Source: Candidatus Aenigmatarchaeota archaeon (GTDB lineage: Archaea; Aenigmatarchaeota; Aenigmatarchaeia; GW2011-AR5). Taken from it: 64,000 nt of DNA. The notes under the pieces are model-generated. The model was given only the letters and a program-made list of their open reading frames with translations. It was not told where the DNA came from and ran no database searches. Positions 5,623 to 17,203 of the stretch are shown here, piece after piece. The first letter of the stretch is position 1, and every line of letters starts with the position of its first letter. The stretch lies in assembly GCA_016187335.1 (NCBI GenBank), contig JACPJW010000002.1:1-64000 (forward strand), read 5' to 3'. The position numbers and the translations under genes are program-made.

Positions 5623-7143
5623 TCACTTGAAAAACTTCCTCACGGCGGGGTTCATTTCCTCGACGTAGCGGACGCTGATCTGCTCGTAGAAGTTGTAGAC
5701 GATGCTGACGGTAAGGAGGATTCCCGTGCCCGTCCCGAGGGCGTTGGTGAAGTCGGCGACAGCGGCAATCAGGCCTATGATTAATCCGCTGAGTATCGCA
5801 AGTATCGGGATGTAGCGGTTGAGGACCTGCTCGACGATGCGCGGGTCCCTGCGGAAGCCCGGCACCTGCATGCCCAGCCCTTCTATCTGCTCCGCAACGT
5901 TCTTAGAATCCATGCCGCTCGTGGCGACCCAGAATACTGAGAAGATGACGGCGCCTACGACCATGATCAGCAAATATATCATGGAGCGCAGGAATTCGCC
6001 GCCTACAGGCAATCCAACGGTGAAGTGCGTGACGATTATGGCTGATACCAGCCCGGCGGCAGCGGATATTGCAAGGATTTTCATGCTGTTCTGCGACCTG
6101 AAGTGGAACGCCAGCATTGACAGGATGAACGTGACGGCAAGCAGCGTGAGGAAGAATATGTTTATTGAAAGGTCAGCGGAAGGCCGCAGGAACTGGACAA
6201 AGCCCGACGTGGGGTTTCCCTGCTGGTCGAAACAGCCCAGCGGCCCGCAGCGCCCGCCGAATTCGCCGGGCTGCGCCATGAGCGAGCCGACAAGCTGTAT
6301 GTTGGCGATAAGCGCTGCTATGAGTATCACCGGGATGTTGCTTGTGTATATCAGGTTGAGCGGCCATCTCCTTCCGAACCCGCGGATGGAGCCAAAGGCC
6401 AAGGGGATTTCCACTTTGACCGCCTGTATGTAAACGACAACCGCAAATACGATTATCGTCGCGATGATGGGCAGGATGGCAATCGTGGCCTGGAAAAGCT
6501 CGCCCTGCGAAAGGAAGACAAGAAACTGGGGTATCAGCCCCGTGGGAACAGTCTCGCCCGGCAGCGTCAGCGGATTGAACGCCCTGACGAAAATCTGTTT
6601 GGTGACCCCGGCTGCTATGAACAATGAAATGCCTGAGCCTATGCCCCATTTAGAAACCACTTCATCCATGAACATTACGATTATTGCGCCGAAAGCCAGC
6701 TGCAGTATGAGCAGAAGGAATATTGAAAAGTCCGGCGTGGCAGGCTTTATCGCGCCGAAAGCAACGTAGGCGTAAGCCTCGAAAAAGCAGAAGAATATTG
6801 CCAGAAGCTTCTGCGCCCCCTGGAACTTCTTCTTGCCCTCTGTTGTCTTCAGGTCCCACTGGATAATCTGCGCCCCCACGAGGAGCTGCAATATTATGGA
6901 TGCGGTGACTATGGGCCCGATGCCGAGGGTCATCAAAGTGCCTATTGACGCGCCCAGGATCAGCTCAAAGAACTGCAGCCTTGCGACTTCCTGCTTCTCG
7001 ACGCCGTAAAGCGTCACCTGCCCGAGAAAAAGGAAAATAAGGAGTATTATGACAGTCCACTTGAGCCTTGATTTGAAGCTCAAATGCGCCTTAGGCTCCT
7101 GCACGCCCGGCAGCTTTGAGGATATGCTTTCTATCAGCGACAT
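5623..7143 (-). CDS. secY: Preprotein translocase subunit SecY
   Basis: GTLMTLGIGPIVTASIILQLL, KWGIGSGISLFI, YTSNIPVIL, GTGILLTV; follows L15. Start placed at ATG 7143 (MSLIES). Confidence 0.97.
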   Translation of the reverse strand: MSLIESISSKLPGVQEPKAHLSFKSRLKWTVIILLIFLFLGQVTLYGVEKQEVARLQFFELILGASIGTLMTLGIGPIVTASIILQLLVGAQIIQWDLKTTEGKKKFQGAQKLLAIFFCFFEAYAYVAFGAIKPATPDFSIFLLLILQLAFGAIIVMFMDEVVSKWGIGSGISLFIAAGVTKQIFVRAFNPLTLPGETVPTGLIPQFLVFLSQGELFQATIAILPIIATIIVFAVVVYIQAVKVEIPLAFGSIRGFGRRWPLNLIYTSNIPVILIAALIANIQLVGSLMAQPGEFGGRCGPLGCFDQQGNPTSGFVQFLRPSADLSINIFFLTLLAVTFILSMLAFHFRSQNSMKILAISAAAGLVSAIIVTHFTVGLPVGGEFLRSMIYLLIMVVGAVIFSVFWVATSGMDSKNVAEQIEGLGMQVPGFRRDPRIVEQVLNRYIPILAILSGLIIGLIAAVADFTNALGTGTGILLTVSIVYNFYEQISVRYVEEMNPAVRKFFK

Positions 7144-7231
7144 TTTTCTGACCACTTTTCCAGTCATCAAGTTGGAGGCAGATGTTATAGTGAAACCAGA
7201 AAAGAATCTGGACATGATTTCTGGTTTCACA

Positions 7232-7323
7232 TACATGGAGAACCGAAGGTTCTCCTGTACAGGTGAAGCGAAGCTTCACCATGTATAGTTCCCAAGGAAA
7301 CTAATACCTGAATGTTTCCTTGG
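7232..7323. repeat. Cluster of three perfect hairpins in the secY 5' region
   Basis: GGAGAACC-GAA-GGTTCTCC (7237-7255), GGTGAAGC-GAA-GCTTCACC (7262-7280), CCAAGGAAAC...GTTTCCTTGG (7292-7323). Confidence 0.8.
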
Positions 7324-7383
7324 AGACAGCAATTTTATTCCACACATTTCCCTTTTTCCGTGCACGCTTTGATTCTTTTCAAA

Positions 7384-7854
7384 TCATTCTTTGGCTTGAT
7401 TTTTCTTTCCGCTTTGCCCGCGCTTTTCGCTTTTCTTTTTAGCTTTCTCCTTGCTTACTTCCTCGCCTTCGACGGAACCGCCTGCCTGCCGTATTTTCTC
7501 GCCTGCTTTCTTTGTGTATTTTTCAACAATAACCTTCAGGGGTCTTGATACCGAGCCTTTGGAAAGAAGCTTTTGATATCCGAGCTCGTTCAGGTCTATT
7601 TCATTCTTCGCTGCGATTCTTTCCAAATCACCAAGGTTTATTGCGCTTATTTTCTTTTTGTTCGGCACGGCAAAGCCCTTGTAGCCGTACCGGTCCGGGT
7701 CCTTTGACGTGACGTAAGAAAACTTGTGCTTGTGGAATCCCGAGAAGCCGCGCCCGCCACGCGAGCCTCCGCCGCGGTTCTTCTTCTTCGCGCCGAACCC
7801 GTGCCAGCGCTTCCCCCGCATCTTCCGGACTTTCTTTTCAAAGCGGACTGTCAT
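7384..7854 (-). CDS. rpl15: 50S ribosomal protein L15 (uL15)
   Basis: KMRGKRWHGFGAKKKNRGGGSRGGRG, KLLSKG; operon position. Confidence 0.95.
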   Translation of the reverse strand: MTVRFEKKVRKMRGKRWHGFGAKKKNRGGGSRGGRGFSGFHKHKFSYVTSKDPDRYGYKGFAVPNKKKISAINLGDLERIAAKNEIDLNELGYQKLLSKGSVSRPLKVIVEKYTKKAGEKIRQAGGSVEGEEVSKEKAKKKSEKRGQSGKKNQAKE

Positions 7855-7904
7855 AATCATCAACGGAATTGTATTTTCTTCGTGAGCTCTGAGAAGCTCT
7901 GTCC

Positions 7905-7984
7905 TTTCCTTGAAGACCAAAGGTCTTCGAGGTCTCGGATACCTTTGGTATCCGAAGATGATGAAACTTTTTGGAAAAGTTTCA
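7905..7984. repeat. 80-nt composite three-hairpin element, copy 1 (includes family A palindrome 7962-7984)
   Basis: Aligns without gaps to 15856-15935 with compensatory stem changes; overlaps the L30 stop TGA. Confidence 0.9.
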
Positions 7985-8302
7985 CATCATCCTCTCGATC
8001 AATTTTTCTATCTCTTTTCCGCGGTAGCCGAGGTCGCCCTTGGGCCACCTGTGCTTCACCGACCTGAAGCCCTTTGCCGGCGGCTTGAGATGTGGCTTTT
8101 CCTTGAGCCTTTTTGCCATCTCATCGCCTACTTCGCCCCACGCAACGAAGTTGTCTATTTTCTTGATCATGCCCTTTATCGACTCGGTTTCCGGCAGCAC
8201 CGCAGCGCTGTGCTTCCTTTTCAGTCCGAGCATTTTCATCGTGTCCTCTAAGTCGCTGCGGACGCCCACCGTCCCTCTTATGCGGACAACTGCGTATGTC
8301 AT
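7982..8302 (-). CDS. rpl30: 50S ribosomal protein L30 (uL30), short form
   Basis: YAVVRIRGTVG...MLGLKRKH...WGE...GDLGYRG; lies between S5 and L15. Confidence 0.93.
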   Translation of the reverse strand: MTYAVVRIRGTVGVRSDLEDTMKMLGLKRKHSAAVLPETESIKGMIKKIDNFVAWGEVGDEMAKRLKEKPHLKPPAKGFRSVKHRWPKGDLGYRGKEIEKLIERMM

Positions 8303-8387
8303 ATTTTTCACTTTATCGTGGCGGAAGCAAAAGTTCATTTTCCTTTGTCATTAAACTGCAGGCATTTTCTCCCGTTTTCATATCATT

Positions 8388-9149
8388 TCATTCAGCTTCT
8401 GACGCTTCTTTAGTTCCAGCTTCGGCTGCTTCTTTCGTTCCGTTTTTGCCTGTTTCTGATTCATTTTCTTCTTCCTGCTCCTTTTCCCCGGCGGCATGAA
8501 CCTTCATTGCGTTCAGCTTCTTGAAGGCGCTGAGTATCGCAAGCACGTAATTTATGCGCGCCCTTGTGTTGCCGTAGGATTTGGACCATATGTCGCGTAT
8601 GCCCGCGAGCTGCAGTACTTTTTTTCCTTCGTCGGCAGCAGCAAGCCCGAGGCCGCGCGGGGCGGGTTTAAGAACAACTGTGACCGAGCCGGACTTGCCT
8701 CTGGCTTCCGCAGGTATTGAGTGGCTGGTGCCGCATGCGCATTCCCACGAGCCGCATCCCCTTTTTACCGGAATCACGTTCAGCTTCGCTTCGTGCGTCG
8801 CTTTCTCTATGGCGTCCCTGTGCTCAAGAGCCTGCGCTTTTCCGACGCCGATATATCCGTCGCCGTTGCCTATGACGACCATGGCGCTTATCCTGAATCT
8901 GCGGCCGGACCTGTGCATCCTTGCCGTCCTGCGCGTGGGCGTCCTCTTTATGCCGCCGCCTTTTCCGGGAGATCCCCCGATGAGTATGACTTCGCTCTGC
9001 ATGTTCGGAAGCAGCCTGTCAACTATCTCCGACTCCTTGATTTTCTTTCCGCTGGAGAATATCATGTCTATTGACGCGACGCTTCCTTCCATGACTCTTT
9101 TGCCCAGTTCCGTCTTTGGTTTCCAGTTTTCCATTGCCATTTTTATCAT
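8388..9149 (-). CDS. rps5: 30S ribosomal protein S5 (uS5)
   Basis: WKPKTELGKRV, RGCGSWECACG, PAPRGLGL. Confidence 0.97.
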   Translation of the reverse strand: MIKMAMENWKPKTELGKRVMEGSVASIDMIFSSGKKIKESEIVDRLLPNMQSEVILIGGSPGKGGGIKRTPTRRTARMHRSGRRFRISAMVVIGNGDGYIGVGKAQALEHRDAIEKATHEAKLNVIPVKRGCGSWECACGTSHSIPAEARGKSGSVTVVLKPAPRGLGLAAADEGKKVLQLAGIRDIWSKSYGNTRARINYVLAILSAFKKLNAMKVHAAGEKEQEEENESETGKNGTKEAAEAGTKEASEAE

Positions 9150-9233
9150 CCATTACGGGAAGCAAAAGTTCAGATTTTTATAAGTTAAACCTAAGCTTCC
9201 ATTCTTTCCTTAGCAATTCTTTTTTATCACAGT

Positions 9234-9365
9234 CTACTTCTTCAATATTATTCTTATCCTTGACCTTATTGCATTCTTTATTTCCTTCCTCTTTTCGTTC
9301 CTTTTTCTGAGGAAAACCCTGACGCCGCTTTTCACGTATCCCAGGACTGCAAACCTGCGTGCCAT
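9234..9365 (-). CDS. Small highly basic ORF (43 aa) coupled to L18
   Basis: MARRFAVLGYVKSGVRVFLRKRNEKRKEIKNAIRSRIRIILKK; its ATG overlaps the L18 stop (TAATG). Confidence 0.5.
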   Translation of the reverse strand: MARRFAVLGYVKSGVRVFLRKRNEKRKEIKNAIRSRIRIILKK

Positions 9366-9925
9366 TATAATTCCCCGATCCTTTTCTTTACTTCTTCAAA
9401 ATGCTGCGTGATGTTTTCCGGCTGCAGGCCGCTCTTCAGGCAGGCGGAAAACTGCTTCCTGTATTTCTCCTGATCGGTGGATTTCAGGTGCTGCGCGTAG
9501 TCGGCAATATGCTTGCCTTTAAGCCGCTCCCCGGGTATTTCCGCATCCACGGGGATGTCGATGCCAGCGTCCCTTACGCCAAGGGCTGCGGCAAAAAGCG
9601 ACTGGGATTTCTTTGACTGCAGTCCCAGGTCAGCAATCCCGCTGTCAAAGCCTTCCTTCGCCGCGGTTTTCCCGAAAAGCATTCCCGTGAGATAAGCTGC
9701 CGGCATGGACCCGGTGTGCCCTTTCCAACCGTGCTCTCTCAGGTGTTTTGAAGTGATTTCAACAAATGTCTGGTCGCCTTTTTCCGCGTACTTGACAAGC
9801 TGTATTGAAAAGCCGTTGCTGGACCTTCTGACGACTATCCTGTTCTTCCTCCCGAGCAGCATCAGAAGCCGCTTGCGGTAGTTCGTTTTCTGTTCCGCCC
9901 TTCTCCGGAATTTCATCTGGAACAT
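9365..9925 (-). CDS. rpl18: 50S ribosomal protein L18 (uL18)
   Basis: FRRRAEQKTNYRKRL, AAYLTG, GKHIADYA. Confidence 0.96.
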   Translation of the reverse strand: MFQMKFRRRAEQKTNYRKRLLMLLGRKNRIVVRRSSNGFSIQLVKYAEKGDQTFVEITSKHLREHGWKGHTGSMPAAYLTGMLFGKTAAKEGFDSGIADLGLQSKKSQSLFAAALGVRDAGIDIPVDAEIPGERLKGKHIADYAQHLKSTDQEKYRKQFSACLKSGLQPENITQHFEEVKKRIGEL

Positions 9926-10066
9926 TTTATAACCCCTCTGTCAAAATGGAATGGATTGTCAAGTTAAACGCTTGATCTCTCCACCTTCCTTTTCCCCGTT
10001 TTTGTTTTTACTTCCCACTTTATTTTTTTCAACCGATTCTTACTTTCCTTTCTGATAAATTTCCAC

Positions 10067-10531
10067 TCACTCCTTTCTTTCCTTTTCTTCCTTCAGCAGG
10101 TTGTTCCTTTCCATGTAATTCGTCAGGTGAGCCCTGCTGCGGAAAAACCCGCTCTTGCTTTTGAGATACAGCAGGCGGTACGTCCTTTTTTCAAGCCTCT
10201 GCGCTGCACGCATTTCCCTGAGCACGGACCTCAGCGTGCGTATCCGCTTTATCCAGAATTTTTTCTGGTTTGACACCGCCCCCTTTCTTGAGCCGTGCCC
10301 TTTCCTCCTTCCCTTTTTCTTCTGGAGGGCGATTTTCTTCTTCCTTGAAGCGCTGACGCCCTGTTCCTGCTCCTTCCTTATCACGCCTTCCTTGACAAGC
10401 CTCCGTATGTCAGCGGCAGTTATGGCTTCGTCTATGTCATTGACCCTTTCAGGGTCAAGCCAGACGCGCGATACGCCGCACTTCATCACGCGCGCCGCGA
10501 TTTTTTTCTGCGTCTCCAGCGACATTATCAT
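10067..10531 (-). CDS. rpl19e: 50S ribosomal protein L19e
   Basis: LETQKKIAARVMKCGVSRVW, KGRRKGHGSRKG, WIKRIR. Confidence 0.97.
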   Translation of the reverse strand: MIMSLETQKKIAARVMKCGVSRVWLDPERVNDIDEAITAADIRRLVKEGVIRKEQEQGVSASRKKKIALQKKKGRRKGHGSRKGAVSNQKKFWIKRIRTLRSVLREMRAAQRLEKRTYRLLYLKSKSGFFRSRAHLTNYMERNNLLKEEKERKE

Positions 10532-10572
10532 TCACCAGCATTCCATTGACGATTCAAATTTCATAACGTTCC

Positions 10573-10601
10573 TTTTGATGAAACTTTTTTGAAAAGTTTC
10601 A
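10573..10601. repeat. Family A palindromic element
   Basis: TTTTGA-TGAAACTTTT-TTG-AAAAGTTTCA; supplies the TGA stop of the Zn-ribbon ORF. Confidence 0.9.
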
Positions 10602-10763
10602 GTTCCAGAACTTCGCCTCGTCGTCCTTGGGCTCGGCAAGCCTTGAGATTGCAAAATCATTGAAAGCTATTTCGCATCTTTTGCAGTGGTATGTCTCCTT
10701 TGAAAGCTTTTTTCCGCCGTCCCCGCAAATGGGGCATTTTCCAGGCCCGAATGCAATGAACAT
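10599..10763 (-). CDS. Zn-ribbon microprotein (54 aa) between L32e and L19e
   Basis: Manual translation MFIAFGPGKCPICGDGGKKLSKETYHCKRCEIAFNDFAISRLAEPKDDEAKFWN; two CxxC motifs; starts 5 nt after the L32e stop. Confidence 0.7.
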   Translation of the reverse strand: MFIAFGPGKCPICGDGGKKLSKETYHCKRCEIAFNDFAISRLAEPKDDEAKFWN

Positions 10764-10768
10764 GTTTG

Positions 10769-11269
10769 TCAGCTCTTTGTCAAGTCGGAATGCTTTCTTT
10801 CGTTCTGTTTATCCCTATTGGTCTCTTCTTTGCTCTCCGTTTTTGCTTCTTCCTCTTTCTTTTCCGCTTTTGCTTTTTCCTTATTTGTAAATTTTTTCTC
10901 TTTTTTCTTCAAAATTTCTTCATGCCTTCTCTTCGCGGCATCAGCGCTTTTCATGTTCAGCAGCCTTATGTTCCGCTGCTGCGCGATTACGGCTATCTCC
11001 GCGGCTTTCCTTTTTCCGAGGGATGACGAGATTATTACCGCCCCGTCCTTCACCGAATTCATGTCCCCAACGGATTTCACAACTGTCGCCTTTATAAATC
11101 CTCTTTCAAGCCCGCGGAATTTTCTTGGAGACCTGCGGCCGATGCTGGGCATTTTCCCCGCGCCTTTCTTTGATTTTCTCAGCTTGCTCTGCTTGCCTCT
11201 GGGTTTCTGCCATCTCGTCCCCAGCTTCTTGTAGCGGAAATAATCCTGCGGCTTGAAGTCTTTGCTCAT
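10769..11269 (-). CDS. rpl32e: 50S ribosomal protein L32e with charged C-terminal extension
   Basis: FKPQDYFRYKKLGTRWQKPRGKQSKLR; ATG overlaps the L6 stop. Confidence 0.93.
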   Translation of the reverse strand: MSKDFKPQDYFRYKKLGTRWQKPRGKQSKLRKSKKGAGKMPSIGRRSPRKFRGLERGFIKATVVKSVGDMNSVKDGAVIISSSLGKRKAAEIAVIAQQRNIRLLNMKSADAAKRRHEEILKKKEKKFTNKEKAKAEKKEEEAKTESKEETNRDKQNERKHSDLTKS

Positions 11270-11808
11270 TCGGAAACACCTCGCGATGCCAGGTACACGC
11301 CGTCCTGGAAAATCCTGCGGTCCCGTTTGCTTATTTTGCACGCGTGCTCAATATTGGCCGCTGTCTGGCCGAGCTCTTCTTTGTCGGTTCCGTTGATCAC
11401 GATCTCGTCCTTGTCCAGCTTCACTTCCGCTTTGCCTACGATTTTCGCCGTGCGCGCGCCCTTCTCGCCCAAAAAGTTGCGGATCTGGACTTCGCCGTCT
11501 TTCACCGTGATGTTGATGGGAAAGTGCGTGTAAAATATCTTCATCCTGTATGCGTAACCCGAAGAGACGCCGAGGAACATGTTCTTTAAGTGCGCCTCTA
11601 TGGTGCCGACCATGGCGCGGTGCTTCTTGGTGTCCTTGCTGCTTCTGACGGCAATCTCCCGGCCCTGTTTCTCTATCACGAGCGTTCGCACGAAGCGCGG
11701 GTCGCTGAAGCTCCTTTCAAGGGAGCCCTTGCTTCCTTTCACTACAACCTTCTTTCCTTCAACGCTCACGTCAACGTGCTCCGGAACTTCTATTTTCTTT
11801 TCAATCAT
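11266..11808 (-). CDS. rpl6: 50S ribosomal protein L6 (uL6)
   Basis: YTHFPI, NFLGEK, RDRRIFQDGVY. Confidence 0.97.
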   Translation of the reverse strand: MIEKKIEVPEHVDVSVEGKKVVVKGSKGSLERSFSDPRFVRTLVIEKQGREIAVRSSKDTKKHRAMVGTIEAHLKNMFLGVSSGYAYRMKIFYTHFPINITVKDGEVQIRNFLGEKGARTAKIVGKAEVKLDKDEIVINGTDKEELGQTAANIEHACKISKRDRRIFQDGVYLASRGVSE

Positions 11809-11817
11809 GAAAATCCC

Positions 11818-12204
11818 TCAATAGATATAACCGACGATGCGGCCTCCAAGCCCTTTTTTCTGGGCTTCTTTCTGGCTCATCACTCCCCTGGGGGTTGAAA
11901 CGATGAGCATGCCGAAATCCTTTGCCGGCAAAAAGCGGGTTTCCCATTTTTCGTATTCGTTCTTCTTCACGGCAAACCTCGGGCGCACGGCGCGCGACTT
12001 GTTTATTTTTCCGGCGAGGCTCACGCTGAACGTGCCTGATTTTCCGTCGTCTATGAATTCAAAGCCGCCTATGTAGCCCGCTTTTTGCATGACCAGGAGC
12101 ACGTTCTTCACTGTGTCCGACGCAGGGACTACGCAGCTCTTCTTCCCGCTTTTCTCGGCGTTGTCCACCGAATACAGCACATCAACCAGAATGTCGTGTC
12201 TCAT
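11818..12204 (-). CDS. rps8: 30S ribosomal protein S8 (uS8)
   Basis: GKINKSRAVRPRF, RFLPAKDFG, VSTPRGVMS. Confidence 0.97.
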   Translation of the reverse strand: MRHDILVDVLYSVDNAEKSGKKSCVVPASDTVKNVLLVMQKAGYIGGFEFIDDGKSGTFSVSLAGKINKSRAVRPRFAVKKNEYEKWETRFLPAKDFGMLIVSTPRGVMSQKEAQKKGLGGRIVGYIY

Positions 12205-12223
12205 TTCTCATCACTCATATAAT

Positions 12224-12670
12224 TTAATTGAAAAGCATCTCATCCATCTGCTTGCAATCATGCATGTCTAATATTTTAGAAACACCGACAAGTTCAAGGT
12301 TTGGAAGACTAATGTCATTCAATTCTCTTGCATCCGTTACCTCCATGAATTCCGCCAGCATTCTTTCTGAAATTTCCGGGCTAAAGGAATGTGCGGATAT
12401 CACTTGCTTCGGTTGTGGTTTCCTGACAAACTTACCTAGCATGTAAAGAGCAATTTTTTCTTCTGTGAAATAAGTAAAAGAAAGTATCGAAAAAGGTTTA
12501 CCGCCGCCATCTACTATCCTTGCTCGTGGTTCAATCTGAATTCTACTGATGTAGTTGCCTATTTTCGAAGGGTCTGATATGACAACAGATTTGCCTTTTA
12601 CGTAAATCATTTTTTCTTGTAGTAAGTCTTCTTTACTTACCTTTACCGGAAAGCTAAATTCGTATTCCAT
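12224..12670 (-). CDS. Hypothetical protein inserted between S14 and S8
   Basis: 148 aa, more AT-rich than its neighbours, fills the gap with an SD-like GGTGAG; no family recognised. Confidence 0.75.
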   Translation of the reverse strand: MEYEFSFPVKVSKEDLLQEKMIYVKGKSVVISDPSKIGNYISRIQIEPRARIVDGGGKPFSILSFTYFTEEKIALYMLGKFVRKPQPKQVISAHSFSPEISERMLAEFMEVTDARELNDISLPNLELVGVSKILDMHDCKQMDEMLFN

Positions 12671-12676
12671 TGTTTC

Positions 12677-12835
12677 TCACCTGTATTTCCTGAAGCCTAT
12701 CTCCGCTGCGACCTCGCGGAAGCACCGGCGGCAGTACATAAGCCCGTATTTCCTTATCACTCCGCGGAACACGCCGCATCTGACGCACTTGTGCGCGCCC
12801 TTGCCGATTTTTCTTTTCACTTTCTTGTTCCTCAT
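12677..12835 (-). CDS. rps14: 30S ribosomal protein S14 type Z (uS14)
   Basis: CVRCG...[15 protein letters not shown]...GFRKY. Confidence 0.96.
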
Positions 12836-12849
12836 AATTTCCGCCTTGA

Positions 12850-13365
12850 TTATTCCTCTATTGTTACGCCGAAATTCTCTTTCATGAATTCCACGGCTTC
12901 CTCTTTTTTTATAACGTGGTTCTTTCCTATCCTTGACGCGATCTTCCTTTTCTTCACGCGGTATCCGGGCCTTTCCAGGGTGACGCAAACGTCAAATCCC
13001 AGCACGCCTATTTTCGGGTCGTAGTCCATCTGTGGAACGTCTATGTACTCCTTGACCCCAAAGGACACGTTGCCTGTCTGGTCAAAACTGCCTTTCATGA
13101 GCCTGTTCTCCTTGGCCTCAAGCATCCGGCGCAGGAATTCCTCCCTGCCTTTCCGTATCGTGACCTTGCATCCGATGGGCCTGTTTTTCGCGACGCCGAA
13201 AGTGGAGCGCTTGTGCGTCTTTGTTATGACCGCCGTTGTCCCTGTTACCCTTTCAAGTATTGTTTTCGCCGTTTCCGTGCTTGTTTTTGTTCCGCACCCT
13301 ATGTTCAGCGTCACTTTCTCCAGCCTTATCCTTCTCATCTTGTTCTCCATTTCCAACACCGTCAT
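12850..13365 (-). CDS. rpl5: 50S ribosomal protein L5 (uL5)
   Basis: [38 protein letters not shown]. Confidence 0.97.
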
Positions 13366-13404
13366 CGGTTTCGTTCACACAAGCTTTTTTGAAACACAAT
13401 TTTT

Positions 13405-14106
13405 TCATTGGAGTTTCAGGTTTGCTAATGATATCAGCGGCTTGTCTTTGCCCACGACAAAGACGTAATCCTTCGGCACGGGAACATCCTTGCCGTCCAC
13501 GCTCACAACCACGATGTTCGGATGCGAGCTTTTCGTTATTATTATCTTTTTTATCGTAACGAAAGCGCCCGTGTTTTTGCCGTGCGCAATGAGGGCAACG
13601 GAGTCTTTCTCGAATCTGACGACGCTCTTTATTTTGTTCTCCATATCCATGGCTATGACATCGCCTGTTTTGTAATCGTCCTTTTCCACGGCAATGTTGC
13701 TGCCGTCGTGGAGGTTGAGCTGTATTTTCCTGTTCTTGAGATGAACCTTGTTCTCCACCCTCAGCAGCCTGAAAGCTTCCTTCCTGTCTATGCTCACCAG
13801 ATGCAGGCCCTTTCTGCCGGCAAGTATCCTGTAAACGTCGTCGCCTATCTCGATTATGTCCATGAATCCCACAGGAAACCCGTGGTCTTTCCTTGCCCTG
13901 CCGTTCACCTTCACGACGCCCTTGTTGAGGATAGCTCTGGCTTCCTTCAGCGTTTCCGCGTGCTTCAAAACATCTCTAAGCACCATTCCGAGCGGCATCG
14001 AAGTCTTCAGCGAATGCGGCCCGGGCTTCGGCATTATCACGTATTTCTTCGTCTTCGTTTCTATCGGCCAGAAACTCGGCGCTGCGAGGCGTTTCAGTTT
14101 GCTCAT
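13405..14106 (-). CDS. rps4e: 30S ribosomal protein S4e
   Basis: LKRLAAPSFW, PKPGPHS, QLNLHDG, DYVFVVG. Confidence 0.97.
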   Translation of the reverse strand: MSKLKRLAAPSFWPIETKTKKYVIMPKPGPHSLKTSMPLGMVLRDVLKHAETLKEARAILNKGVVKVNGRARKDHGFPVGFMDIIEIGDDVYRILAGRKGLHLVSIDRKEAFRLLRVENKVHLKNRKIQLNLHDGSNIAVEKDDYKTGDVIAMDMENKIKSVVRFEKDSVALIAHGKNTGAFVTIKKIIITKSSHPNIVVVSVDGKDVPVPKDYVFVVGKDKPLISLANLKLQ

Positions 14107-14162
14107 GGTTTACCACCTTTTGCCAAAGCGGAAGGATGCGTTCCGTTCTTTTTTCTCTCCAT

Positions 14163-14642
14163 TTATTTTTTCTCCTCTTTCGTTTTCTGTTCTTTGCTTT
14201 GCTCTGGTTTCATTTCCTCCGTCGTTTTGGTCGTCAAGCCTTTCTGTTTCTTCCTTTCCAGTATTTTCTTCCTTTCGCTGTCATCCAGATTCAGCTTGGT
14301 TATCACGACATTGCTCGGGTCTATGGGAGCCTGAACTTCCTGCCCCGAGACCTTTTTTCTTTTTGCGTTTTCCATGTACACCTTCATCTCCTTCATGTCA
14401 ACGCGCGACACCTTGCCTTTTGATCCTTTGTGGGAACCTGTGATAACAACAACTTCATCGTCTTTCCTGACAGGCAGCGATCTTTTTCCGTATTCCTTGC
14501 GCAGCTCCCTGCTCAGGTGCGCCGCCAGCATCCTGTGCCTCAGGTGCAGGGGAGCGTTGTACCTGTACTTTCTCTGCTTCCTGGGCTGCGAACTGCTCAC
14601 CCACTGCTTTGAAAACATTTTTTTCATTTCAAACACCGTCAA
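14163..14642 (-). CDS. rpl24: 50S ribosomal protein L24 (uL24)
   Basis: SSQPRKQRKYRYNAPLH, LPVRKDDEV, PIDPSNVVI. Confidence 0.97.
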   Translation of the reverse strand: MTVFEMKKMFSKQWVSSSQPRKQRKYRYNAPLHLRHRMLAAHLSRELRKEYGKRSLPVRKDDEVVVITGSHKGSKGKVSRVDMKEMKVYMENAKRKKVSGQEVQAPIDPSNVVITKLNLDDSERKKILERKKQKGLTTKTTEEMKPEQSKEQKTKEEKK

Positions 14643-14643
14643 A

Positions 14644-15045
14644 TCACAAAACTATGCTTGATATCTTGCCTATCGGGGAAAACCGCTCGACGGCTTCCTT
14701 GGCAACCACTGTGCGCACCTCTGTTCCCTGCGGCTCGAACGTCTTGGGATTCACGAGAATGGCTGCGTTGTCCATGAACTTTACGCGCGTTCCGTCGGCG
14801 CGCCTGTATTCCTTTTTCTGCCTCACTATGACGGCGTAAACGACAGTGCCGCGGACCTTCTCTTTTCCTTTCTTGACGCTGCATATGACGACGTCGCCTA
14901 TTCCGGCCTTCGGCAGCCTTCGCAGCCTCCCCTTGTATCCTTTTACCGATATCAGCTCCAGTTCCTTCGCTCCTGTGTTGTCTGCGCAGTTCAGCCGCGA
15001 CTTGAGCTGTATCGGCTTCGTCATTTTCGCTGTGAGTCCTTTCAT
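14644..15045 (-). CDS. rpl14: 50S ribosomal protein L14 (uL14)
   Basis: CADNTGAKEL, RRLPKAGIGD, RRADG...FMDNAA. Confidence 0.97.
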   Translation of the reverse strand: MKGLTAKMTKPIQLKSRLNCADNTGAKELELISVKGYKGRLRRLPKAGIGDVVICSVKKGKEKVRGTVVYAVIVRQKKEYRRADGTRVKFMDNAAILVNPKTFEPQGTEVRTVVAKEAVERFSPIGKISSIVL

Positions 15046-15064
15046 ATCAGCATCACACCATATA

Positions 15065-15127
15065 TTTTTGATAGAACTTTTTGTTAAAAAGTTCTTTTTG
15101 ATAGAACTTTTTGTTAAAAAGTTCTAT
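15065..15127. repeat. Family A element, exact 30-nt tandem duplication
   Basis: (TTTTTGATAGAACTTTTTGTTAAAAAGTTC)x2 followed by TAT; overlaps the S17 stop TAG. Confidence 0.95.
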
Positions 15128-15471
15128 GCAGTAACTTTTTCCACGACGACGAACCGCTTCGCTTTTGAAAGCGGCCGGCACTCGGCTATGGTAACGGTGT
15201 CGCCCTCCTTTGCGGCGATGCACTGCGGGTTATGGGCCGCTATGCGCGTGTTTTTCCTCTGGTACCTTTCGTACTTGGGAACGTATGTGTAGTAATTCCA
15301 CTCGACGATAGCGGTATTCAGCGCCTTTGAAGAGACGACTTTTCCGCTGAAAACCCGGCCGCGCACCTTCAGGTGGCCGTGCCACGGGCATTTCTCGCTG
15401 CCGCATGCTTCCTTCGGCGCTTCGGCAGCTATGCCGATGTTTTTCACTGCAGTTTTCTTTTTTCGTGCCAT
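15124..15471 (-). CDS. rps17: 30S ribosomal protein S17 (uS17)
   Basis: CPWHGHLKVRGR, PKYERY, ECRPLSK. Confidence 0.97.
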   Translation of the reverse strand: MARKKKTAVKNIGIAAEAPKEACGSEKCPWHGHLKVRGRVFSGKVVSSKALNTAIVEWNYYTYVPKYERYQRKNTRIAAHNPQCIAAKEGDTVTIAECRPLSKAKRFVVVEKVTA

Positions 15472-15487
15472 TTTTCACACCGTAATA

Positions 15488-15531
15488 TTTTTCTTTCCAT
15501 GCATGCTTTCTTTTCCAAAAAGAAAGGATGC
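15488..15531. repeat. Family B palindromic element (intergenic counterpart of the tRNA-Ile D-loop intron core)
   Basis: 44 nt matching 26120-26161 with four substitutions and one 2-nt indel; on the minus strand it begins at the G of the rnp1 stop TAG. Confidence 0.9.
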
Positions 15532-15821
15532 TACCATTTCCTGAATTTCTTTTTTATCCTGTCTTCGGGCCTCGCAACAAGATGGCTGCCCTCGACGTCA
15601 ACCTTCTGGTTTCCAACATCAATCCTGAAAACGCTCCCGGATTTCACGATCCGCTTTGTTTCATTTTCCTTCTTTAAGACAAGCGTCTTCATCGTTTCGT
15701 CAACAATCCTTCCTTTTATGCCCGTGTTTTGCGGGTTTCTTGCCCTGACAACTTCGCATTCAAGCCCGATCAGCTCGTGACGCAGGATGTTCTTCGCATT
15801 CCGCATGGGCATCAACTTCAA
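15531..15821 (-). CDS. rnp1: Ribonuclease P protein component 1 (Rpp29)
   Basis: NILRHELIGL, GIKGRIVDET, RPEDRIKK; usual operon position. Confidence 0.95.
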   Translation of the reverse strand: MKLMPMRNAKNILRHELIGLECEVVRARNPQNTGIKGRIVDETMKTLVLKKENETKRIVKSGSVFRIDVGNQKVDVEGSHLVARPEDRIKKKFRKW

Positions 15822-15855
15822 TCTGCATCAACGCTTTAGTTTTCATTGACGGTCG

Positions 15856-15935
15856 TTTCCTTGAAGAGCAAAGCTCTTCGAGGTCCCGAAAAACTTCGTT
15901 TTTCGAGGATGATGAAACTTTTTTGAAAAGTTTCA
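15856..15935. repeat. 80-nt composite three-hairpin element, copy 2
   Basis: Gap-free paralogue of 7905-7984; overlaps the SUI1 stop TGA. Confidence 0.9.
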
Positions 15936-16235
15936 ACGCACTTCTATTATGTCGGCCGGAAACCCCTCTTTTATGAGTATCTCCTTCACGCGCTTCCTGT
16001 GGTCGCCCTGCAGCTCTATTTCATCGTTCTTGTATGTCCCGCCGCACGCTAGCTTCGACTTTAATTTTTTCAGCAGCCCCCTGATGTTGATCTTGCTTGA
16101 ATCTATTCCCTTTACCACCGTCATGTTCTTTCCAAAGCTCTTTTGCACCACGAAAACGCTTATTTTCTGCGCTTCTTTCGCTATCGTTTCGCATATGCAA
16201 AGCTCCTTTGGCAGGCCGCATTTCGGGCAAATCAC
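15933..16235 (-). CDS. Translation initiation factor SUI1 (aIF1)
   Basis: [33 protein letters not shown]. Confidence 0.96.
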
Positions 16236-16465
16236 GATTCTTTCGCACCTCTTGGTTTTTGTTTCTTTCCTTCTAGCTGAACTTTCTGCAGGGTCTGCAT
16301 CCTGGCTATGGTTCTTCGCAGGCCTTTTATTCTGCCGGGATTTTTCACGGTTCCTATCTCGCTCGCTGCTTTCTCCTTGGACAGCTCAAGCTTCAGCTCG
16401 CGTTGCTTTTCAGAAAGCTCTTTTTCGTTCATTTCCCGGATTTTTTTCATTTTAAGTATTGCCAT
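16232..16465 (-). CDS. rpl29: 50S ribosomal protein L29 (uL29)
   Basis: [12 protein letters not shown]...[17 protein letters not shown]. Confidence 0.95.
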
Positions 16466-16480
16466 GCTCAGCACCACTCC

Positions 16481-16510
16481 AAACTTTTTAACAAAAAGTT
16501 TGATCAAAAA
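16481..16510. repeat. Family A element, reverse orientation
   Basis: AAACTTTTT-AAC-AAAAAGTTT-GATCAAAAA. Confidence 0.9.
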
Positions 16511-16516
16511 TTTTTC

Positions 16517-17203
16517 TTATTGCCTCGCCGCCTCCGCAACCGGGCTTTCTGCTGCTGCAACTTCCGGTTTTTCTTTCGCTTTTTCCTCCGCAGCTTCCTT
16601 GCTCTCGATTATTTTCTTTGCCCTCTGCATTATGTCAGCGTGCCTTATCATTATCTTGACAGTCACGCCTATGTTGCCGAGCCTCGGGTTAGCGACGGCA
16701 AAGCCTTTTATGACGTCTTTCAGTGCCGGGTCGCCGGCTTTTTTCAGGTATCCTGCCGTGAAGCGCTCCTTTCTTGACCGCTGGCCTGACATCTTCCCGG
16801 AGAATACAATTTCGCAGCCGACAGCGCCCGCTTCCATTATCTTCTCCACGTAGAAATTCCCGAGGCGCTTGTAGTTGACGCCCGTTTCCAGCGCGTTCGC
16901 GATATTCTGCGCGACGATGTGGGGGTCGGCGTCGGGGTTGTCAATCTTCTGCACGTCTATCTGCGGGTTTTCAATGCTGAATTTCTGCCTCAGCTGCTCC
17001 GTCGTTTCCCTTATGCGCTCGCCGCCGGCGCCTATGACAAGACCTGGCGTCGTCGTGTATATGATTATTCTCGTGACTATCGGCGTGTGCTGGACCTCGA
17101 TCTTGCCGCACTTCGCCTGCTTGAACTGGCCCCTGATGAACTCTTCCAGCCCGACGTTCTCTTTTGCTTTCTGTATGAATATGCGCTCTTTCATCAACAT
17201 CAC
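16517..17203 (-). CDS. rps3: 30S ribosomal protein S3 (uS3)
   Basis: TTTPGLVIGAGG, AVGCEIVFSGK, GYLKKAG. Confidence 0.97.
   Translation of the reverse strand: MMLMKERIFIQKAKENVGLEEFIRGQFKQAKCGKIEVQHTPIVTRIIIYTTTPGLVIGAGGERIRETTEQLRQKFSIENPQIDVQKIDNPDADPHIVAQNIANALETGVNYKRLGNFYVEKIMEAGAVGCEIVFSGKMSGQRSRKERFTAGYLKKAGDPALKDVIKGFAVANPRLGNIGVTVKIMIRHADIMQRAKKIIESKEAAEEKAKEKPEVAAAESPVAEAARQ

Follow-up and report, generated by a model that had tools for sequence, protein, structure and literature searches.

Nested palindromic repeats behind stop codons in a ribosomal-protein operon of an Aenigmatarchaeota genome

This analysis concerns two 80-nt stretches, e1 (positions 7905-7984) and e2 (15856-15935), in a ribosomal-protein operon of a Candidatus Aenigmatarchaeota archaeon; the window analyzed comprises positions 1 to 64,000 of contig JACPJW010000002.1 (assembly GCA_016187335.1), 64,000 nucleotides in all. 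The two stretches are best explained as copies of a nested non-coding palindromic repeat and not as dedicated regulators of the ribosomal genes that flank them. Each is a hairpin-plus-tail element (A) with a separate two-hairpin module (TH) nested inside it, and such repeats are probably small selfish elements that spread as DNA in a structure-dependent manner, with the copies in the operon being passively co-transcribed. The evidence comes from the architecture of the elements, their different occupancy in close relatives, and their presence in introns of tRNA and rRNA genes.

The source genome (G000) measures 1.01 Mb in two contigs, with 47% G+C and an estimated completeness of 91%. Its closest SUI1 loci belong to Candidatus Aenigmatarchaeota metagenome-assembled genomes from groundwater, and DNA of the window was found in groundwater metagenomes from several studies. 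Comparisons were made with 61 genomes of the same order, with a same-genus genome (G001) whose uL30 is roughly 60% identical to that of G000, judged by eye, and with a 151-genome sample of the phylum, which doubled as a specificity control.

A two-hairpin module nested in a hairpin-plus-tail element

As originally predicted from the letters of the window, e1 and e2 align without gaps, with 68 of 80 positions identical (85%), and their stems are exactly those first described: on the plus strand, hairpin 1 (HP1) is GAAGACC/GGTCTTC in e1 and GAAGAGC/GCTCTTC in e2, hairpin 2 (HP2) is CGGATACC/GGTATCCG in e1 and CGAAAAAC/GTTTTTCG in e2, and hairpin A is TGAAACTTTT-NNN-AAAAGTTTCA in both. The multiple compensatory changes that had been claimed are also present. 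Ten of the 12 differences form five compensatory pairs, one in HP1, three in HP2, and one in a 3-bp extension of HP2 across a bulged T, which goes beyond the first description; the remaining two are loop bases, and no difference falls in a linker or leaves a stem uncompensated. On the mRNA strand both stretches begin at a TGA stop codon, that of uL30 and that of aIF1/SUI1, again as predicted. Consensus patterns of 26-30 nt for either end of the element matched only e1, e2, and the A hairpin at 10574-10601, with no match in 100 shuffles. The mRNA strand folded far better than shuffles (z -5.3 for the e1 spacer and -3.9 for the e2 spacer), and the opposite strand folded about as well (z -4.9 and -3.2). 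The e1 spacer contains four hairpins and not three, and the fourth is retained, with compensatory changes, in the orthologous spacer of G001.

The A element consists of a hairpin, xAACTTTT-NNN-AAAAGTTx', and a tail, ATCAAAA(C/G)GG. Genome-wide, the hairpin pattern matched 89 times versus none in shuffles, and a looser pattern gave 96 oriented copies. The outer stem varies with compensation (GAAAC/GTTTC, CAAAC/GTTTG, TAAAC/GTTTA, GCAAC/GTTGC, and TGAAC/GTTCA), and uninterrupted sites read ...GTTxATCAAAAGGG and ...CTGAAAAGTTTC. A small hairpin with a 6-bp stem and a loop of TCTCAG or CTCA (xGAxCTTCTCAGxxTCx) often follows A tails, as at 7884-7899 and in the regions of C2 350729, 716289, and 894350, and also occurs in the anticodon-loop intron of a tRNA-Pro gene (C2:104177-104240). 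A C/D-box reading of the antisense UGAUGA...CUGA was rejected by eye, the spacing being 7 nt and not 12 and the loop not being conserved.

The second module, TH, reads ATCTGY-HP2-GAGATCCC-HP1-RAGG over ~52-56 nt and is present in ~21 copies, nine of them in full composites (74-98 bits) and about 12 in variant form. Sixteen of these roughly 21 copies are embedded in A elements at one of two sites. Nine, including e1 and e2, occupy the tail as ATC[TH]AAAAGGG, and seven occupy the hairpin arm as CTGAA[TH]AAGTTTC, for which the uninterrupted counterpart is CTGAAAAGTTTC; two of the seven are forward and five reversed relative to the A tail, and the Rpp29-S17 spacer of G001 shows the same reversed arrangement. 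Filled and empty A sites differ by TH alone: no target bases are duplicated, and the ends of the module (ATCTGY.../...RAGG) are not inverted repeats. The right flank on the TH strand is always ^AA(A)G or ^AAAC, and the left flank varies (ATC, GAA, or AAA). The hairpins of the 80-nt three-hairpin element proposed originally are real but belong to two units, an A element and the separate TH module nested inside it.

Turnover, introns, and covariation

A covariance model trained on the nine composites recovered the same architecture with different stems from related genomes. Matches were obtained in 42 of the 61 genomes of the order, at 0 to ~59 per genome across the set, and outside the order only one was obtained in the phylum sample. 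Junctions of the operon are differently occupied in the two genomes of the genus. SUI1-Rpp29, which holds e2 in G000, is a plain 33-nt spacer in G001; Rpp29-S17 holds a different hairpin type in G000 and an A element with the reversed TH in G001; S17-L14 is occupied in G000 and not in G001, and L14-L24 in G001 and not in G000. Only L30-L15 is filled in both, by composites whose HP2, HP1, and fourth-hairpin stems are entirely different. In other relatives the L30-L15 junction measures -6 to 17 nt in compact genomes, or contains quite different hairpin stacks or inserted genes; in L003, L005, L020, and L023 it spans 340-830 nt with inserted open reading frames (ORFs), and from these several Aenigmatarchaeota it would seem that insertions commonly accumulate at L30-L15, as at a general hot spot.

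Differences were also seen at closer range. In a roughly 90%-identical population from another metagenome, all 82 nt of 15046-15127, a tandem pair of A elements, are absent, and 37 unrelated bases stand where G000 has the spacer 10526-10602 with its A element (10601); one contig of this population overhangs briefly at 15885, a hint that its e2 has another HP2. Contigs from two near-identical populations (X5 and X6) are short and broken around the elements and are uninformative on e1. Judged by these sequence comparisons, the pattern of occupancy is apparently that of mobile or rapidly exchanged DNA and not that of a site-specific regulator.

The same modules occur in genes for stable RNAs. In some A copies inside RNA genes the tail is followed by a third arm (AAAGTTx'), and a simple scanner found exactly one canonical bulge-helix-bulge (BHB) motif per copy in five T-loop copies and in one 16S rRNA mini-intron, for example T-stem / TTCG:CGAA / bulges AAT and TAT / GAACTTT:AAAGTTC. 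The full three-hairpin composite is present in three T-loop introns (C2:716691-716772, 236590-236671, and 411947-412028). The tRNAs at C2:716772 and C2:104265 were detected by ARAGORN only once the BHB-bounded insert had been removed. In the whole genome no more than two or three tRNA genes were found uninterrupted by ARAGORN, which means that almost every tRNA gene carries at least one intron, many at non-canonical positions; when single hairpin-A inserts were removed by brute force before running ARAGORN, only five loci were resolved, as several introns are present in most tRNA genes. The disruption of tRNA genes in DPANN archaea as such is known (PMC5829648). The 16S rRNA gene of G000 (C2:239678-242953, minus strand) matches in two pieces with a gap of ~1.2 kb and holds a 48-nt A-type mini-intron with the canonical BHB; A-type hairpins also lie directly after the 3' end of the 16S gene. 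By comparison, e1, e2, and four other intergenic composites gave only minimal 3-bp BHB candidates, and neither e1 nor e2 has a third arm that would close an intron helix. In total there were nine such 3-bp candidates in seven regions, six of which are the intergenic composites, versus 0.43 per shuffled e1 region, a figure to be read with the inflation of chance BHB matches in hairpin-rich sequence.

Covariation was scored on 29 copies from 20 genomes, which are related copies. Standard pairs made up 95.5% of cells versus 73.0% in shuffles, with none of 500 shuffles reaching the observed value; 26 of the 28 pairs changed on both sides, and sliding the partners by one to three columns reduced pairing to 35-59%. 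Covariation thus persisted once more copies were aligned, and the linkers are near-fixed (ATC(T)G, GAGATCCC/GGGACCTC, and RAGGAAA). The paired changes had been taken as a sign of selection on, or templated repair of, single-stranded structure; constraint on the hairpins stands, but the differences between e1 and e2 are better explained if the two are distinct members of the family than if one sequence underwent compensatory mutation at a fixed site. G-T mispairs (19) and A-C mispairs (12) occurred at similar frequency among 761 cells, a comparison that is underpowered as a test of RNA versus DNA. Because the two kinds of mispair are about equal and both strands fold, there is no sign of selection on the RNA strand only, and this balance, together with the two-strand folding, fits DNA-level palindromes. 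Rfam 15 gave no match at the gathering score in the window, and none to the elements at E <= 1 in 7700-16100.

Copies in the ribosomal-protein operon

The operon is a minus-strand archaeal cluster that includes uL30, uL15, uS5, uL18, L19e, L32e, uS17, Rpp29, aIF1/SUI1, and uL29 (Table 1). Genes were called with a home-made codon-score caller, and distances to start codons are approximate. If uL15 starts at ATG 7860, as is most likely, the e1 spacer measures 121 nt; with the Rpp29 start at ATG 15806, the e2 spacer measures 126 nt, versus 0-33 nt for the SUI1-Rpp29 spacer in most relatives. Of the oriented A copies in the genome, 33 have a co-oriented gene ending within 40 nt upstream, and in 20 of these 33 the stop codon lies no more than 4 nt from the stem; in 12 copies it forms part of the stem itself (TGA-AAC, TAA-AC, or TAG-AAC, with TCA, TTA, or CTA in the other arm). 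Within this operon, all five sense A copies (7984, 10601, 15127, 15935, and 18011) start within 4 nt of such a stop. This placement may reflect a target preference or the survival of the least harmful insertions.

Table 1. Coordinates of the repeat modules and of the genes next to e1 and e2, numbered along the window.
Feature	Position	Strand	Remarks
e1 hairpin A, TGAAACTTTT-CCA-AAAAGTTTCA	7962..7984	-	First three bases are the uL30 TGA stop
e1 TH: ATCTT, HP2, AGACCTC, HP1, AAGG	7908..7959	-	Interrupts the A tail between ATC and AAAGG
e1 HP2, core	7936..7954	-	
e1 HP2, extended stem	7933..7958	-	
e1 HP1	7912..7928	-	
e1 fourth hairpin, GAGCUU-CUCA-GAGCUC	7884..7899	-	Member of the xGAxCTTCTCAGxxTCx hairpin family
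e2 hairpin A, TGAAACTTTT-CAA-AAAAGTTTCA	15913..15935	-	First three bases are the aIF1/SUI1 TGA stop
e2 TH: ATCCT, HP2 (core 15887-15905), GGGACCTC, HP1 (15863-15879), AAGG	15859..15910	-	
uL30 gene, upstream cistron of e1	7982..8302	-	TGA stop 7984-7982
uL15 gene	7384..7860	-	Likely start ATG 7860-7858 (MIMTVRFEKK...)
aIF1/SUI1 gene, upstream cistron of e2	15933..16235	-	TGA stop 15935-15933
RNase P protein Rpp29 gene	15531..15806	-	Start ATG 15806-15804 from comparison with relatives
Simple A element without TH	10579..10601	-	Opens with the TGA stop of a 54-aa ORF; upstream of L19e
Two tandem A-variant elements, TAGAACTTTTT-AAC-AAAAAGTTCTATCAAAAAG	15046..15127	-	S17 TAG stop within the first stem
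A element, stem opening with a TAA stop codon	17986..18011	-	
A-type hairpin, opposite orientation (tail on plus strand)	16480..16502	+	L29-S3 junction

Further observations were made on these spacers. The 54-aa ORF whose TGA stop opens the A hairpin near 10601 (10599-10763, minus strand, between L32e and L19e) has two CxxC pairs and is zinc-ribbon-like. At the L29-S3 junction, contigs of a related population have loose ends at 16465 and 16480. The uL15-SecY spacer contains, at 7237-7280 (minus strand), a two-hairpin unit, GGTGAAGC-ttc-GCTTCACC TGTACA GGAGAACC-ttc-GGTTCTCC, flanked by ATACAT...ATGTAT, which looks like a further module type in the same style. The Rpp29-S17 spacer contains, at 15506-15526 (minus strand), a second hairpin family, CTTTCTTTT-TGG-AAAAGAAAG, followed by CATGCATGGAAAGAAAAATATTA. 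Similar hairpin-plus-tail units were found in relatives, with tails that include the TATA-like AAATATTATA; units with such tails may carry a promoter.

Alternative explanations and comparison with known systems

The repeat proposed here to spread has two layers. The first is the A element, in roughly 100 copies usually at or within 1-2 bases of the stop of a co-oriented gene; when joined by a third arm, it also serves as the intron body in tRNA and 16S rRNA genes, where the BHB motifs are canonical. The second is TH, inserted into A elements in the tail, as in e1 and e2, or in the hairpin arm, in either orientation. The modules would spread as DNA through a mechanism that reads hairpin shape together with short linker sequences, and propagation would be limited to copies whose hairpins are intact; this would account for perfect but different stems standing beside conserved linkers. 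Copies in the operon would merely be co-transcribed between cistrons and tolerated because a site just after a stop codon is harmless, and any effects on the mRNA, such as protection of 3' ends, would be a by-product.

Several observations weigh against such a spread. The analysis turned up no enzyme that would mobilize the modules. In G000 (91% complete), no Y1 transposase scored over the cut-off, the only trace being a 16.7-bit fragment with a stop, and TnpB is absent from this genome; across the related genomes, Y1 genes occur in 18 of 61 and do not track TH copy number. The hairpins that recur near several Y1 genes are of the CCACCGT type, the insertion sequence (IS) ends of the relatives look different, and viral contigs gave no match to the exact HP1-region pattern. 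By the rough gene calls, about 20 TH copies are sense and 2-3 antisense to the likely transcript. Stems that vary widely within one genome beside identical linkers would also be expected of a functional RNA family under long selection. The L30-L15 junction is filled in both genomes of the genus, the covariation alignment was fitted to the model, and no RNA run was among the public runs listed for 7000-16999, which leaves room for a role as RNA.

A domesticated role in the mRNA is the main rival, and we hold it to be unlikely. In such a role, the stem at the stop codon would block 3'-to-5' decay of the upstream cistron or mark a site of endonucleolytic processing, and the linkers would be a protein-binding site. 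The closeness of A stems to co-oriented stops, in the genome at large and in every sense copy of the operon, is what this role would predict, as are the bias of both TH and A toward the sense strand, the invariant linkers beside covarying stems across 20 genomes, and the very stable fold of the mRNA strand. It is opposed by the nearest relatives, in which the same junctions are empty or differently filled, and by the antisense copies, namely TH in the Rpp29-S17 spacer of G001 and the A hairpin at 16480-16502. Identical modules lie within tRNA introns, where no mRNA function is applicable; there is no excess of G-U pairs relative to A-C mispairs; and Rfam holds no matching family.

That hairpin A is instead a transcription signal in the DNA, either an internal promoter (a palindrome resembling a B recognition element (BRE)/TATA box) or a bidirectional terminator punctuating the operon, is improbable. 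Its arms are rich in T4/A4, many start codons follow 5-50 nt downstream of it, some A copies stand in divergent or convergent spacers, and AAAGTT words show a mild enrichment in the zone 21-40 nt before starts; however, the upstream motif of this genome is a canonical TTTAAA/TTTATA box that peaks 21-40 nt before starts, and hairpin A has no such box. The k-mer profile of upstream regions was the basis on which hairpin A as a general promoter was rejected as the leading explanation. The distance from A to the start codon is also variable (5 to 50 nt), TH parts the hairpin from the expected position of transcription start in e1 and e2, T runs are only four long, the same hairpin is found within tRNA and 16S introns, and the motif is absent from the same operon in most relatives.

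Mobilization in trans by an IS200/IS605-family Y1 transposase acting on hairpins of single-stranded DNA, which would make these repeats similar to repetitive extragenic palindromes (REPs) and bacterial interspersed mosaic elements (BIMEs) or to palindrome-associated transposable elements (PATEs), is quite improbable. It would account for the two subterminal hairpins of TH, for the lack of terminal inverted repeats and target duplications, and for the recurring right flank ^AA(A)G, and the order does contain Y1 genes. Against it, G000 contains no intact Y1 and no TnpB, TH-rich genomes lack Y1 (G004, G014, G018, G027, and G033), and Y1-bearing genomes lack TH (G016, G023, and G029); none of 14 Y1 genes examined is flanked by a TH-like match, and two significant matches lie ~1.8-1.9 kb off. 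Excision of e1 and e2 from the mRNA by the tRNA splicing endonuclease, possibly yielding circular RNAs, is most improbable: in T-loops and 16S rRNA, textbook BHB motifs do enclose three composites nearly identical to e1 and e2, along with many A copies, and ARAGORN detects tRNAs after removal of the BHB-bounded inserts, but e1 and e2 are judged not to be excised because, like the four other intergenic copies, they give only minimal BHB candidates, and because they have no third arm.

The spread of nested palindromes as DNA can be extended, tentatively and as no more than one possibility, to a scheme in which TH is a "parasite of a parasite" that specifically enters the A hairpin and both layers are moved by an enzyme that reads a folded single strand. 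Because the splicing endonuclease removes anything between two bulges, the same nested repeats can invade genes for tRNA and rRNA and turn into introns, and they would then be a living source of intron gain in archaea. The setting is a compact, small DPANN genome that nevertheless carries ~100 hairpin repeats, located directly behind stop codons and in introns of tRNA and rRNA genes. If the spread as DNA is true, the long spacers in tight ribosomal operons require no regulatory explanation, and the family would show clearly that stems can covary where no dedicated RNA function exists, which calls for care when RNAs are discovered by covariation. It would also connect repeats between genes with the open question of how BHB introns arise in archaea, and the mobilizing activity would be a new structure-reading enzyme to seek.

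In the literature searched, no description of this nested family was found, and several known systems invite comparison. REP and BIME sequences of Enterobacteria and Pseudomonas are short extragenic palindromes in composite, multi-copy units that lie in operon spacers, are co-transcribed, and keep their structure. The original likening of e1 and e2 to composite BIME-type elements holds as an analogy, since both are multi-copy extragenic palindromes, modular, and intercistronic or in 3' regions of operons. It does not extend to membership: no Y1 or REP-associated tyrosine transposase (RAYT) gene and no GTAG-type head are present here, the host is an archaeon, and copies lie in BHB introns. HP2 and HP1 are moreover in tandem, with the purine-rich arm first in each, whereas BIME palindromes alternate in orientation, and the stems here differ strongly between copies while the linkers are fixed.

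The BOX elements of Streptococcus pneumoniae and the Correia/NEMIS elements of Neisseria are small, modular, non-coding hairpin repeats that are transcribed with operons and vary in presence or absence between strains. The present family resembles bacterial miniature inverted-repeat transposable elements in being non-coding and multi-copy and in showing insertion differences between relatives; unlike them, TH has no terminal inverted repeats or target-site duplication, and it targets the A hairpin and not a simple dinucleotide. PATEs, which derive from IS200/IS605, and the attC sites of integrons are both read as folded single-stranded DNA. HP1 and HP2 do not have the R''/R' box pattern of attC, and no matching transposase or IS ends are present here; shared with these systems are a conserved structure on variable sequence, subterminal hairpins, and the lack of inverted terminal repeats or duplications. 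Finally, transposed (paralogous) BHB introns were reportedly described in tRNA genes of the Thermoproteales by Fujishima and colleagues in 2010. In contrast to those, the family here is mostly intergenic and follows stop codons, e1 and e2 have neither a BHB nor a third arm, and the intron body nests two repeat families; in common with them, one sequence family occupies introns of different tRNA genes and positions, and the three TH-bearing composites share one T-loop position in three tRNA genes, each with a canonical BHB.

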